64,000 bases of DNA from a virus. Location of the stretch: positions 1 through 64,000 of IMG/VR virus record IMGVR_UViG_3300021961_000065, one strand, 5' to 3'. Below the pieces are notes generated by a model. It did no database searches. It worked only from the letters and a program-made list of their open reading frames with translations, and had not been told where the DNA came from. Below are positions 1 to 46,429 of the stretch, piece after piece. Both the position numbers and the translations under genes were made by a program. Position 1 is the stretch's first letter, and the number at the start of each line of letters is the position of its first letter.

Positions 1-937
1 TCGTAAGTATGGCATAGACTTTCAGGATAAAAGAATATGGGATTGTCAGTTAGTGCATTTCATGCTAACAGGTCAATCAAAACCATATCCTAGCTTGAAT
101 CAAGTCTGTGAACACTATGGACTAGAAACTAAACTAGACGTAGTCAAAGAAGAATATTGGAAGAATGGCATTGATACTAATGAGATTCCAAGAGATATTC
201 TAGATGAGTATTTGCTCAAGGATTTAGAATTAACAGAGCAAGTGTATTTAAAACAGTTAGAAGATCTTGAGGCTAATCCACATCTTAAAAGACTAATCAG
301 CTTACATAATCAGGACTTGTTAGTTCTTGAAGAAATGGAGTTCAATGGTGTTTTATATGATCAAGATAGGTCAGAGATCTTAGGTAATGAATTGGAGGAA
401 CAGATTGCAAAACTCGATAAAAGACTTTATACATTCCATAATTTTGACATGTTTAATCCCAGTAGTGTTGATCATGTTAGTGCCTTATTATATGGGGGTA
501 TTATTAAGTTCCGTGTTCAGGAACCTGATGGGGTATACAAGTCAGGACAAAAGCAAGGACAAGTAAAACTTAGATGGATAGATAAAGAAATAGAATTTCC
601 TAGACTTGTCAAACCACTAAAAAACAGTGAGTTAGAAAAGGAAGGTTTATTCTCTACTGATGAACAAACACTTAAAAGTTTAGGTGGTTCTAAAAAAGCA
701 TCAGAAGTTATTAAGATAATCTTGACAAGAGCAGTTTTAGAGAAGAGAATGACTGCATATTATAAAGGTTTGGTAAATTTGATAACAGAGCAGAATTGGG
801 AAAAGGGTCATATCTATGGACAACTAAACCAATGTGTGGCTCGAACAGGACGACTATCAAGTAGTAAGCCTAACTTACAAAACTTTGATGGTGAAATTAA
901 AGGTTTATTATTATCACGATATAAGGAGGCAATATGA
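1..937 (+). CDS. DNA polymerase A, N-terminal half (3'-5' exo + thumb), 5'-truncated, copy A
   Basis: ExoIII-like YLLKDL, EMEFNGV and ARTGRLSSSKPNLQN (PolA motif 2); homologous to 43786-44940. Confidence 0.9.
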   Translation, partial: RKYGIDFQDKRIWDCQLVHFMLTGQSKPYPSLNQVCEHYGLETKLDVVKEEYWKNGIDTNEIPRDILDEYLLKDLELTEQVYLKQLEDLEANPHLKRLISLHNQDLLVLEEMEFNGVLYDQDRSEILGNELEEQIAKLDKRLYTFHNFDMFNPSSVDHVSALLYGGIIKFRVQEPDGVYKSGQKQGQVKLRWIDKEIEFPRLVKPLKNSELEKEGLFSTDEQTLKSLGGSKKASEVIKIILTRAVLEKRMTAYYKGLVNLITEQNWEKGHIYGQLNQCVARTGRLSSSKPNLQNFDGEIKGLLLSRYKEAI

Positions 938-1128
938 GTAACGATAACTATACCCCTGACTATGATGAAGGTATGCAACTTCAATCAGATCAGGAAGAAG
1001 CTTATGTAGTTCATACAGTAAATGACATCAATACAATCATTCAAGAAGTAGGTGTTGAGATTGTTATGGAAAATCTTAATGACTATTCAACTGAACAGAT
1101 TGTTAAATGGTTAGCCAAACACTATTAA
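934..1128 (+). CDS. Small protein between the two polymerase halves, copy A
   Basis: Strong SD AAGGAGG, ATGA overlap; C-terminal 34 aa align without gaps to 44930-45187. Confidence 0.75.
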   Translation: MSNDNYTPDYDEGMQLQSDQEEAYVVHTVNDINTIIQEVGVEIVMENLNDYSTEQIVKWLAKHY

Positions 1129-1141
1129 TGAGGCATTACTA

Positions 1142-1867
1142 ATGTTATTACAAGCAGATGCAAAACAACTAGAGTGGGTAGGTGCTAGTTATCTGTCTCA
1201 AGATCAAGTAGCTATTGATGAGATATGGCAAGGCACAGACATGCACTCTGATAATCAGAAGAGGTTTGGACTACCTAGTAGATTGATTGCTAAGACATTC
1301 GTATTTAGATTGATCTATGGAGGCAGTGCTTGGTCTTATGCTAATGATCCTAACTTCAAAGATGTAGGTGATGAGAAGTTTTGGGAAAAGATCATTAATG
1401 ACTTCTATGGAAAATATAAACAGTTATATCAGTGGCACGAAGAGATTGTATTCAAAGCCACAAGAGATCACAAACTTATCATGCCAACAGGACGGACTTA
1501 CTTTTATGAGCCTGAGGTTAAGTATGGTAAGATTAAGTATCCTCGAACTAAAATACTAAACTATCCAGTTCAAGGACTAGGTGCAGATTTAATGGCGATA
1601 GCTCGAGTCTCATTGAGAAATCGTCTTAAAGGTCGTGATGGAGTAAAGATGGTAAATACTGTTCACGATTCTATTATCCTTGACTTTGATCCAAAAGTAT
1701 GGGATAATGTTACATTGGTCAACATAGTTGATAAATGTTTCGAAGATGTTCCTGATAATTTTACTAAGTTATTTGGAATAGATTTTAACTTACCTATGCG
1801 TGTCGAGTGTCAAATAGGACAAACATGGGGTGATATGGAGATAATAAATGCAAATCACAGTAATTGA
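1142..1867 (+). CDS. DNA polymerase A, C-terminal catalytic half, copy A
   Basis: Motif A ADAKQLE, motif B RLIAKTFVFRLIYG, NYPVQG, motif C TVHDS; own SD GAGG. Confidence 0.92.
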   Translation: MLLQADAKQLEWVGASYLSQDQVAIDEIWQGTDMHSDNQKRFGLPSRLIAKTFVFRLIYGGSAWSYANDPNFKDVGDEKFWEKIINDFYGKYKQLYQWHEEIVFKATRDHKLIMPTGRTYFYEPEVKYGKIKYPRTKILNYPVQGLGADLMAIARVSLRNRLKGRDGVKMVNTVHDSIILDFDPKVWDNVTLVNIVDKCFEDVPDNFTKLFGIDFNLPMRVECQIGQTWGDMEIINANHSN

Positions 1868-43560: not shown

Positions 43561-43789
43561 TTATGATGCAACAAATGATATAACTAATCCTACTATGAAA
43601 AAGATATATTCATATATGCAAAGAGGTAAAACATATACTCGTAAAGATATAGCAAAAGACCTGTCCCTACCTGTTCCTACAGTGACAGCTAGGGTTTCAG
43701 ATCTTCTGATGAAACATTATATAACAGAGACCCCTACTGTATGGGATGAAAAATCTAAAAGATATATAGGAGGCTTCCAAAGATTATGA
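43529..43789 (+). CDS. Winged HTH DNA-binding protein
   Basis: TRKDIAKDLSLPVPTVTARVSDL. Confidence 0.7.
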   Translation: MRRLMITIHRDYDATNDITNPTMKKIYSYMQRGKTYTRKDIAKDLSLPVPTVTARVSDLLMKHYITETPTVWDEKSKRYIGGFQRL

Positions 43790-44940
43790 ATGTATTAACA
43801 ATAGATGTAGAAACTACCATATCAAATAAAGGTAATCCTTTTGATACAACTAATAAATTAGTATATGTAGGATGTAAAGATAACGAGCAACCTACTAAAG
43901 TATTTAGTATTGAATACAATCAAGAACCTTATAAAGATAAACTTAATAAGATTCAAGCTATGATAAATGATGTTGATTGGTTAGTAGGTTTTAATATTAA
44001 ATTTGATTTATCTTGGTTAAAAAGATATGGAATTAAATTTGATCACAAAAGAATATGGGATTGTCAGTTAGCTCACTTTATTATGACAGGACAAGAAAAA
44101 CCATATCCTAGTTTAAATGGAGTCTGTGAACATCACGGACTTGAACAAAAGATAGATATTATTAAAGAGCAGTATTGGTCTAATGGCATTGACACTCCAA
44201 ATATACCAGAAGAATTATTACAAGACTATCTTAAAAAAGATGTAGACTTAACAAGAGAAGTTTATAAAAAACAAATGTATGTATTATATAAAGATACTAA
44301 TCAAGCTAATCTTATACAATTACATTTTAGAGATTTAGCAGTGCTTCAAGAAATGGAATACAATGGGATGTTATATGATCAACAAAGGAGTAAAATACTT
44401 GGTGATGAATTGGATGAACAAATTGGGAAACTGGATAGACGACTGTACGATTTACATGGATTGGATTCTTTTAACCCTTCTAGCGTGGATCACCTTAATG
44501 CTTTCCTTTATGGTGGGAGGCTTAGCTTCCGTCGTAAAGTACCTGATGGTGTTTACAAGACGGGGGCTCGTAAAGGTGAACCAAAGGAAAAATGGGAAAC
44601 GTATGAAGTAGAATTACCACAACGTTGTAAACCTATTGCAGGATCTGAACTAAAAAAAGATGGATTATATTCAGTAGATGATAGTACAATTAAAAGATTA
44701 AAAGGAGCAAAAGATATTCGTGATTTAATACTAACAAGAGCTACATTACAGAAACGACTTACAGCATACTATAGAGGCTTAGATGAACTTATCACAGAAA
44801 ATAATTGGAAACAAAACAAACTACATGGAGTCCTCAACCAATGTGTTGCTAGAACAGGACGACTCTCAAGTAGTAAACCCAACTTACAAAACTTTGATTC
44901 AGAAATTAAAGGCTTGCTTTACAGTAGATATGAGTCATAG
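43786..44940 (+). CDS. DNA polymerase A, N-terminal half, copy B
   Basis: ExoI IDVET, ExoII GFNIKFDL, ExoIII YLKKDV, ARTGRLSSSKPNLQN. Confidence 0.9.
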   Translation: MNVLTIDVETTISNKGNPFDTTNKLVYVGCKDNEQPTKVFSIEYNQEPYKDKLNKIQAMINDVDWLVGFNIKFDLSWLKRYGIKFDHKRIWDCQLAHFIMTGQEKPYPSLNGVCEHHGLEQKIDIIKEQYWSNGIDTPNIPEELLQDYLKKDVDLTREVYKKQMYVLYKDTNQANLIQLHFRDLAVLQEMEYNGMLYDQQRSKILGDELDEQIGKLDRRLYDLHGLDSFNPSSVDHLNAFLYGGRLSFRRKVPDGVYKTGARKGEPKEKWETYEVELPQRCKPIAGSELKKDGLYSVDDSTIKRLKGAKDIRDLILTRATLQKRLTAYYRGLDELITENNWKQNKLHGVLNQCVARTGRLSSSKPNLQNFDSEIKGLLYSRYES

Positions 44941-45187
44941 TAAAAAAGTAACAGTAGCTATTACAGGCATTGATGATTATTTTCGTAATAATTGTCCTCG
45001 CTCTGAAAGATTAAAAGATCTTTATGAACATATAGAACGCAAAGGATTAAATGTAGCCTGGGCAGAATATGTATCTAAAGATATAGAAGATCTTATTATG
45101 ATAGAAGGACCTGAATTTTTACTTAAACATATGTCTGTTAGTGCTAAAGATAAACTAATAAAGTACATGAAAAAGAGGTATCTTTAA
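44930..45187 (+). CDS. Small protein between the polymerase halves, copy B (85 aa)
   Basis: Start re-called at MSHSKK; homologous to 934-1128. Confidence 0.7.
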   Translation: MSHSKKVTVAITGIDDYFRNNCPRSERLKDLYEHIERKGLNVAWAEYVSKDIEDLIMIEGPEFLLKHMSVSAKDKLIKYMKKRYL

Positions 45188-45912
45188 TGTTATTACAAGC
45201 AGATGCAAAACAACTAGAGTGGGTAGGTGCTGCTTATTTATCTCAAGATCCTGTAGCTATTAATGAAATATGGGGATCAGTAGATATGCACAGTGATAAT
45301 CAAAAACGATTTGGTCTACCTAGTAGATTGATTGCTAAGACTTTCGTGTTTAGATTAATCTATGGAGGCAGTGCTTATAGTTATGCACATGATCCTAACT
45401 TTATGTCAATAGGTAGTGAAAAGTATTGGCAAACTATTATAGATAACTTTTATGATAAATATAAAAGATTAGGTGAATGGCATAAAGAAATCTATGAAGA
45501 AGCAGTTCGTGAACGTAGATTAGTAATGCCAACAAATAGAGTCTATAACTTTGAATCTGAAGTTAAAGGCAATAAAGTATATTATCCACGTACTAAGATA
45601 TTAAACTATCCTGTACAAGGATTAGGCGCAGATCTTATGGCGATTGCTCGTGTGTCGTTAATGACTAAACTACGTGAGATGAAAGACATAGTTATGGTTA
45701 ATACAGTACATGATTCAATAATACTTGATTTTAATTCAAAAGTATGGGATAATATACATATAGTCAATTTAGTTGACAAATGTTTCAATGAAGTTCCAGA
45801 TAACTTTCACAAATTATTTGGGAAAGAGTTTAACTTACCTATGAGAGTCGAGTGTCAAGTAGGACCCACATGGGGATCAATGGAGATAATAAATGCAGAT
45901 AAACGTAATTGA
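45187..45912 (+). CDS. DNA polymerase A, C-terminal half, copy B
   Basis: Motifs A/B/C as in 1142-1867. Confidence 0.92.
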   Translation: MLLQADAKQLEWVGAAYLSQDPVAINEIWGSVDMHSDNQKRFGLPSRLIAKTFVFRLIYGGSAYSYAHDPNFMSIGSEKYWQTIIDNFYDKYKRLGEWHKEIYEEAVRERRLVMPTNRVYNFESEVKGNKVYYPRTKILNYPVQGLGADLMAIARVSLMTKLREMKDIVMVNTVHDSIILDFNSKVWDNIHIVNLVDKCFNEVPDNFHKLFGKEFNLPMRVECQVGPTWGSMEIINADKRN

Positions 45913-46429
45913 TGTAGGACAACCAACCACTCATGCTAGTGCTAATGGTAGATCATATGAAATGATTGAAGTTGCATACAAGAATGAGAACGGGCAAATT
46001 CAACAAAAGAAGTTAATGTCATTCAAAAACCCTGACGTTTACAAACAAGCTTTAACATGGGAGAAAGGTGCAACAGTCCATATACAAGCTGAGAAAAACG
46101 AAAAAGGTTATTGGGAATGGATTGGCTTAGGAGATGTACCAGTAGCTAGTGCATCACCATCATCACAACCTAGTAAATCTAATAGCAATACTAGAGTTAC
46201 TGGTTCTAACTATGAAACCAAAGAAGAACGTGCAGCACGACAAGTAATGATTGTTCGGCAGTCATCTATCTCTTCAGCAGTCAGTGCTTTAACAGCAAGT
46301 AATAATGTTCCTTCAAGCAACGACATTCTATCTCTTGCAAAAGAGTTTGAAGATTATGTTATGGGTAATACTACTGTTAACAAAGCTGATGGTGGAATAG
46401 ATAACTTTGAGGATGATGTTCCTTTTTAG
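45893..46429 (+). CDS. Putative SSB, copy B
   Basis: Ends EDDVPF. Confidence 0.6.
   Translation: MQINVIDVGQPTTHASANGRSYEMIEVAYKNENGQIQQKKLMSFKNPDVYKQALTWEKGATVHIQAEKNEKGYWEWIGLGDVPVASASPSSQPSKSNSNTRVTGSNYETKEERAARQVMIVRQSSISSAVSALTASNNVPSSNDILSLAKEFEDYVMGNTTVNKADGGIDNFEDDVPF

Follow-up and report, generated by a model that had tools for sequence, protein, structure and literature searches.

The splitting of a DNA polymerase gene in the phages MEP401 and MEP402 was published by Yang et al. (2023; PMC10580990), who found that most group I metagenomic genomes share it, suggested an intron, which was untested there, and left ORF14, the small gene between the two polymerase parts, unexplained. 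Here we add two members to this arrangement, both encoded in a stretch of viral DNA of 64,000 nucleotides (the window), which comprises bases 1-64000 of the 74.8-kb linear IMG/VR virus record IMGVR_UViG_3300021961_000065. In both copies the N-terminal half of the family A polymerase PolA (N-half) is followed by a small open reading frame (ORF), termed here the mini-gene, and then by the C-terminal half (C-half). The order ORF13-ORF14-ORF15 of MEP401 and MEP402 is like that of the window, with the same split, and the ORF14 protein of 77 amino acids (aa) belongs to the same family as the mini-genes, which we call family 1. As the split had already been published, the arrangement was known and what remained was the identity of the small gene. 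To the account of Yang et al. (2023) our analysis adds junctions that are empty or hold other genes, relatives of ORF14 outside PolA, their transfer between phages, and two paralog types, A and B. We consider it likely that the polymerase is made in two pieces, that the junction between them is a slot for small accessory genes, and that the mini-gene does not supply the enzyme with a structural third part.

Several systems described before resemble this locus in part. In the Aeromonas phages 25 and 44RR a family B polymerase is split into gp43A and gp43B, which are separately translated, co-purify and are active (Edgell et al., 2010, PMC2988022). The gap between them holds either a seg endonuclease gene or an untranslated spacer, and the review raises the question whether the occupant invaded an already split gene (PMC2988022). 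In those phages the occupant is a recognisable homing endonuclease, whereas here the enzyme is of family A and no nuclease was found in ~230 loci. According to the same source, mobE is inserted in the conserved core of Aeh1 NrdA and the enzyme works as separate polypeptides (Friedrich et al., 2007, cited in PMC2988022); the occupant, as cited there, is a homing endonuclease with a known mobility mechanism, while family 1 is without a nuclease motif. Fractured genes combine split inteins with a free-standing endonuclease (Dassa et al., 2009, PMC2677866). Their likeness to the present locus is that halves of phage replication genes are parted by a small ORF, but here there are neither intein or Hint ends nor an endonuclease. 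A preliminary description of the window had proposed a three-part polymerase, and the closest real example of that proposal is PhiKZ, whose DNAP-N and DNAP-C form a stable 1:1 complex that is boosted by Rhc (Basu et al., 2026, preprint, PMC13648687). Non-covalent assembly has been shown for PhiKZ and for the Aeromonas phages (PMC2988022) and is presumed here; the PhiKZ enzyme is of family B and Rhc, a large RNase H plus clamp-like protein, has its gene elsewhere, whereas the gap here encodes a dispensable helical protein of ~64 aa.

The record holds two diverged, syntenic podophage genomes in series, with a period of ~44 kb; two MEP401-type genomes in series are probably an assembly join of two co-occurring strains. 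Their nearest cultured relatives are MEP401 and MEP402 (Zobellviridae), phages of OM43 (Methylophilales), with 65-68% DNA identity in the replication module. The features of the two polymerase loci, including Shine-Dalgarno (SD) sequences, are listed below with the evidence for each, which includes Pfam profiles with their E-values (E), AlphaFold2 (AF2) models and ratios of non-synonymous to synonymous divergence (dN/dS).

2..937, plus strand: copy 1 PolA N-half, with 3′-5′ exonuclease, thumb and motifs 1-2 (Pfam DNA_pol_A profile positions 49-131, E 2.7e-17; ORF list).
923..929, plus strand: SD sequence AAGGAGG of the copy 1 mini-gene, within the last codons of the N-half (sequence reading).
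934..1128, plus strand: copy 1 mini-gene, family 1 type A, 64 aa (AF2, dN/dS, profile family of 50 clusters).
1128..1142, plus strand: copy 1 relic ORF, ATG AGG CAT TAC TAA, M-R-H-Y-stop (alignment with L007 and L012).
1142..1867, plus strand: copy 1 PolA C-half, 241 aa (Pfam DNA_pol_A profile positions 154-381, E 1e-23).
43786..44940, plus strand: copy 2 PolA N-half, complete, 384 aa (Pfam DNA_pol_A_exo1, E 5e-8, and DNA_pol_A, E 1e-16; PDB: Bst, Klenow, Taq).
44930..45187, plus strand: copy 2 mini-gene, family 1 type B, 85 aa (ORF list; AF2; hhalign of type A against type B).
45175-45178, plus strand: SD sequence GAGG of the copy 2 C-half (sequence reading).
45187..45912, plus strand: copy 2 PolA C-half, 241 aa (Pfam; 73% identical to the copy 1 C-half).

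The preliminary description had placed the break between motif 2 and motif A, with essentially no residues missing in either copy, and the Pfam matches, an alignment to Taq and the unsplit relatives all bear this out. The N-halves matched the DNA_pol_A profile up to position 131-132 and the C-halves from position 154. In the PDB alignment to Taq residues 606-792, which was made with the copy 2 C-half, residue 2 of the C-half aligns with Taq residue 606, so that the catalytic Asp (Taq D610) corresponds to D6 of the C-half; in both copies the cut lies five residues before this catalytic Asp of motif A, which reads MLLQAD in the C-half. The copy 1 N-half, truncated at its 5′ end by the start of the record, ends with ...NLQNFDGEIKGLLLSRYKEAI-stop, and its C-half starts with MLLQADAKQLEW (motif A, Asp as residue 6) and carries motif B, RLIAKTFVFRLIYG, of the pattern RxxxKxxxFxxxYG, and motif C, VHDS. 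The N-half ends 14-17 aa past NLQN, as expected from the unsplit relatives, which continue through the junction uninterrupted (e.g., ...SRYEDGLLLNSDAS... in P0051). Since the two halves of copy 2 sum to the length of the unsplit enzymes (384 + 241 = 625 aa, compared with 617-645 aa) and the unsplit relatives read through the junction, no residues are missing.

PF01612 and PF00476 span both halves, which between them hold the exonuclease and motifs 1, 2, A, B and C of a family A DNA polymerase, and PDB alignments of the halves were obtained to Bst, Klenow, Taq and apicoplast polymerases. Motif C is HDS and not the canonical HDE (window ~1661-1672 and 45706-45717). HDS is present in 114 of 120 relatives, split and unsplit, and is therefore no sign of decay. 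Both pieces are conserved, each with its own start and stop and without loss of residues, and unsplit homologues exist, as is typical of genes in pieces. The heterodimeric polymerase that the preliminary description had proposed is well supported by inference, in that the split is universal in the clade, the pieces have their own starts, and neither an intron, an intein nor a spare residue was found.

To learn what the junction holds in other phages, we analysed three samples of viral contigs, ~230 together, which were drawn by polymerase sequence alone. The polymerase was split at the same point in every informative or parsed locus of the three samples, and the recurrence of the break in ~230 independent viral contigs upholds the earlier argument that it is not a sequencing error. 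Sample 1 was seeded by the window C-half and gave 79 informative loci, including both window copies and MEP401 and MEP402. Thirty of these 79 had no gene in the junction, 26 had family 1 (two tandem copies in 11 of them) and 23 had a gene of an unrelated family, family 2. At empty junctions in this sample the ORFs overlapped as TAATG or by 17 nucleotides (nt), or were separated by a gap of 8-48 nt. In family 2 proteins the N-terminus contains a transmembrane helix, and the tail, ...PLPEI..DPILPRALPPL.EGGEVYFEEL, is conserved. They are 60-107 aa long, with a proline-rich PLPEI/LPPL region, an acidic aromatic tail (GGEVYFEEL) and no Pfam match; they occur in L042, L047, L056, L064, L068, L073 and L078, with variants in L017-L021, L034 and L219-L225, and it is odd to find a membrane-anchored protein encoded within a polymerase gene.

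Sample 2 was drawn from the MEP401 side and gave 75 informative loci. Some of these have an extra gene upstream of family 1, which encodes a winged-helix/helix-turn-helix protein (PF14090, E 4e-10) or a 60-aa membrane protein, and one has a 38-aa ORF downstream of family 1. Sample 3, seeded by unsplit relatives, returned 77 loci, of which 73 were parsed, and all 73 were split at the same site. In 16 of its loci the halves are in one frame and yet split, by in-frame stops. The gaps in sample 3 range from a 17-nt overlap up to 876 nt, and their contents are nothing at all, non-coding spacers of 48-126 nt, family 1, small Zn-ribbon-like ORFs, or ORFs of up to 173 aa that could not be annotated. 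The Zn-ribbon-like junction ORFs are small and Cys-rich and occur in deeper split lineages (67 aa in L236, 28 aa in L247). A subclade (L243, L244, L246, L248 and L249) shares a conserved 119-nt junction spacer without an ORF of at least 22 codons, which may be a non-coding element or a decayed gene.

The complete relatives G001 and G004 (CheckV), which have the split and an empty junction, gave no family-1 homologue in a genome-wide search; as a positive control, the search of the window's record returned exactly the two known genes. In the preliminary description the mini-gene was regarded as a possible accessory subunit or assembly factor, and a survey of its co-occurrence with the split was suggested. 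The survey turned up what that description itself had named as refuting evidence, namely relatives with the same split and no mini-gene: over a third of the sample 1 loci and two complete genomes lack it, and 23 loci of the sample have an unrelated gene in its place. An obligatory accessory subunit would be expected to co-occur strictly with the split enzyme and to be restricted to it, and we found absences, replacements and copies in phages without PolA; by the standard of the preliminary description, an obligatory third subunit is excluded.

Whatever the ORF that precedes it, the C-half start is nearly always tied to the stop of that ORF, as TAATG or as a stop followed by one nucleotide and ATG, and its translation is therefore probably coupled. 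In copy 1 the mini-gene ATG (934) overlaps the N-half stop as ATGA; in copy 2 the first 11 nt of the mini-gene lie within the end of the N-half, and its TAA stop extends into the C-half ATG.

The members of family 1 are genuine translated proteins and strongly constrained. When 1.84 billion representatives were searched with a profile built from the junction copies only, 50 clusters were retrieved, of small proteins (52-105 aa); the long profile hits P0014 and P0038 are ankyrin-repeat proteins and were treated as spurious. Another protein, P0047 (120 aa), joins an L130-type family-1 core to an unrelated N-terminal domain of ~57 aa; it may be a true fusion or else an error of gene calling. The dN/dS of the mini-genes was 0.01-0.18 across subgroups and 0.01-0.05 for copy 1 against near relatives (22 synonymous and 3 non-synonymous changes against L006), at least as low as the 0.05-0.15 of the adjoining polymerase halves. 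Family members are 50-105 aa long and in most cases strongly acidic, with a core of ~48 aa in three helices, a median isoelectric point (pI) of 4.7 and a median net charge of -8. The copy 1 protein, of type A, is 64 aa long with a pI of 4.1 and a net charge of -11. Its AF2 model (mean confidence, pLDDT, 78.6; core >89) has a disordered, acidic segment at residues 1-16 and helices at 14-38, 41-46 and 50-63. The model of the copy 2 protein, of type B, is all-helical (pLDDT 71.9; helices 23-38, 40-59, 61-65 and 70-84), and this protein is basic, with a pI of 9.0. Type B has one additional helix N-terminal to the core that is common to both types.

The two mini-genes had been presented as the same conserved gene. 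That they are related was confirmed at the level of profiles, where type A and type B match with a probability of 97.5% (hhalign, E 6e-12, 50 columns), although BLASTP yields no pairwise alignment of the window's two proteins. Both types occur in tandem between the polymerase halves in L005, L007-L015 and L058, the closest relatives of copy 1, where type A is acidic and 64-66 aa long, like the mini-protein of copy 1, and type B is 83-90 aa long, like that of copy 2. The profile match and the tandem occurrence thus make the window's two mini-genes paralogs and not orthologs. Compared with L007 and L012, which keep a full type B gene of 84-90 aa, copy 1 lacks codons 2-81 of type B: an in-frame deletion that begins directly behind ATGAG and extends to ...AAGAG has taken them out. 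The relic ORF that is left starts with an overlap of the type A stop (TAATG) and ends with an overlap of the C-half ATG (TAATG), and it holds the GAGG that acts as the SD of the copy 1 C-half. The C-half was earlier said to have its own SD, and one is indeed present, but in copy 1 it sits inside this four-codon relic ORF.

Family 1 is also an independent, horizontally traded gene. In L130-L137 it is the first gene of an operon, followed by genes for an ERF annealing protein, a YqaJ exonuclease, a putative ParB-like protein and a single-strand DNA-binding protein (SSB)-like protein; in L127 and L128 it follows a gene for an RNase-H-like exonuclease and a pyrimidine-dimer glycosylase (Pyr_excise) gene. 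No family A polymerase was found in these records, among them the 90%-complete G006, which has family 1 and no PF00476 match. Over 153 nt of the family-1 core, L127/L128 and the PolA-junction copies of L154/L114, which are MEP401-type, are 97.4% identical, and these loci have nothing else in common, which indicates recent transfer between unrelated phages. Searches for the function of family 1 yielded nothing from Pfam, PHROGs, PADLOC or a PDB sequence profile, and no usable match in the ESM Atlas. Foldseek against the PDB gave nothing better than E 5.7, and the matches in BFVD were all to uncharacterised family members. In a wide VIA-align comparison the histone-fold rows (including Dpb3/Dpb4 of Pol epsilon) reached a best Z of 4.1, with a root-mean-square deviation of 3.4 over 56 residues, far below the level that is meaningful for helical models.

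T7 gp5.9 and lambda Gam are small acidic early proteins that block host nucleases. By analogy, family 1 resembles them in size, in acidic charge and in its position among polymerase, exonuclease and recombination genes, and its place just upstream of an annealing-protein and exonuclease pair in L130-L137 recalls inhibitors of host nucleases. It has, however, no sequence or fold similarity to either, and the type B paralog is basic.

The polymerase tree of near relatives shows at least 10 changes of junction state, and close sisters differ: L040 has family 1 and L034 family 2, and L039 and L062 have family 1 where L038 and L069 have no gene. Between copy 1 and L005-L012 the synonymous divergence (pS) was 0.5-0.6 for the N-half, 0.2-0.6 for the mini-gene and 0.17-0.25 for the C-half; this unevenness suggests recombination breakpoints at or near the junction.

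Two other origins of the junction have to be weighed against this background. Yang et al. (2023) suggested a self-splicing intron, and an intein or the remnant of a homing endonuclease would likewise let the polymerase be made whole again as RNA or as protein. References cited in PMC10580990 describe phage polA genes that contain group I introns or inteins. Recurrent splitting at precisely the same conserved position in deep branches is the pattern expected of a site-specific mobile element, and the N- and C-halves share one frame in both window copies. Yet the mini-genes are read in a different frame, and three one-base overlaps in succession account for the frame that the halves have in common; many relatives without any intervening sequence keep the stop and the ATG in different frames (TAATG or the 17-nt overlap). 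Rfam scans of both junctions at E-values of up to 10 returned noise only and no intron family. No HNH, GIY-YIG, LAGLIDADG or Hint domain was found by Pfam in any junction ORF of the window and its relatives, up to 173 aa, and no nuclease by PHROGs, in agreement with the preliminary reading of the intervening ORFs as free of HNH, GIY-YIG and intein motifs. The broken ends carry no extra residues and no Hint or intein match in Pfam, and halves that add up to the unsplit length leave no room for the pieces of a split intein. We regard rejoining of this kind as highly improbable. A fusion by frameshifting, either of mini-gene and C-half or of the two halves, was also considered and rejected, as there is no slippery site and the AGGA/GAGG before the ATG has the spacing of an ordinary SD. 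The other proposal is that insertion of family 1 just before motif A originally made the split, and that empty junctions and those with other genes are later losses and replacements. The near-relative tree fits this, with the unsplit P0051 sister to the split clade, family 1 on all deep split branches and the states without a gene nested among them, and clean deletions of mini-genes that preserve the overlaps are seen directly in the copy 1 relic and in L006. In the broader tree, however, junctions that are empty or non-coding stand on early branches of the window's clade (L232, L243-L249, the L272 group), which weakens an ancestral family 1; P0051 falls among the split polymerases of the clade, a position that points to re-fusion or to more than one splitting event; a second split group lies among other unsplit lineages; and the deep nodes, across which split and unsplit lineages are interleaved, are weakly supported. 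No nuclease or transposase is associated with family 1, and because the family moves horizontally it may equally have entered an existing split, so that either order is plausible. An origin of the split by family-1 insertion is thus possible, although we do not favour it.

In the reading that we prefer, that of a two-piece polymerase with a slot at its junction, the N-half (exonuclease, thumb and motifs 1-2) and the C-half (motifs A, B and C) would be translated separately and associate non-covalently, and translation of the C-half would be coupled to the upstream ORF by termination-reinitiation; the observed deletions retain the chain of start and stop overlaps. Small genes would be gained, lost, duplicated and replaced in the slot, probably by recombination with the conserved polymerase halves as homology arms. 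The family-1 protein is most likely an early accessory protein with a target of its own, in DNA metabolism or in the host, and we suppose that it acts much as the small acidic inhibitors of host nucleases or defences do. Several points weigh against parts of this reading. The proposed function is a best guess, drawn by analogy from size, charge and gene neighbourhood; no fold or family match backs it, and the copy 2 type B protein, with its pI of 9, does not fit a simple acidic mimic. Furthermore, a family-1 gene immediately precedes the C-half in each of the 75 informative loci of sample 2 (the MEP401 subclade), it is as constrained as the polymerase, and its expression, with start and stop codons tightly linked, is probably coupled to that of the C-half, all of which fits a polymerase-related role in the phages of this subclade. 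The same findings are what a three-part polymerase would predict, in which the mini-protein helps the halves to associate or adds processivity and lineages without it are compensated otherwise. Family 1 is present also in a second, deeper split clade, of the MLIQGDAS type (L253, L255, L257-L260, L263-L270 and L283; E 1e-11 to 1e-17), and Rhc of PhiKZ shows that a phage polymerase in two pieces can have a third subunit (PMC13648687). Speaking against it are the empty and otherwise occupied junctions in the window's own subclade, the complete genomes that lack family 1, the homologues in phages without PolA and the recent transfer of the core between unrelated phages. Moreover, the two halves together already make up the full length of an unsplit enzyme, leaving no missing element for a mini-protein to supply. 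A third part of this kind therefore seems unlikely to us, and we give as little weight to a facultative polymerase-linked role of family 1 in those phages that keep it.

A broader and rather doubtful possibility is that the junction is a recombination-friendly expression slot and family 1 a new class of mobile small proteins, acting either as counter-defence proteins or host-nuclease inhibitors or as facultative modulators of the replisome, whose insertion may have created the split. If this is true, small cassettes, family 1 chief among them, are swapped between co-infecting and even unrelated phages, with the polymerase halves as homology arms, and are expressed via the polymerase's own translation. 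The published intron suggestion and the three-subunit idea are both largely set aside. The gap emerges as a hypervariable slot that houses a widespread, strongly conserved and horizontally traded family of small proteins, and it is reasonable to regard family 1 as a candidate new host-interference protein of abundant marine phages. MEP401 and MEP402, grown on OM43 strain FZCC0133, offer a cultured system for a natural, intein-free two-piece family A polymerase.

Directly after each C-half lies a further gene, at 1848-2369 (173 aa) and at 45893-46429 (178 aa). Neither has a significant Pfam match, the sub-threshold one being to YheC/D ATP-grasp (E 0.004). Their products end in ...MEDDIPL and ...FEDDVPF, resembling the acidic C-terminal tail of bacterial SSB, and from these sequences they are likely to be phage single-strand DNA-binding proteins. 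Similar tails are found in L130 and L133 (FEDDVPF and FEDMPF).

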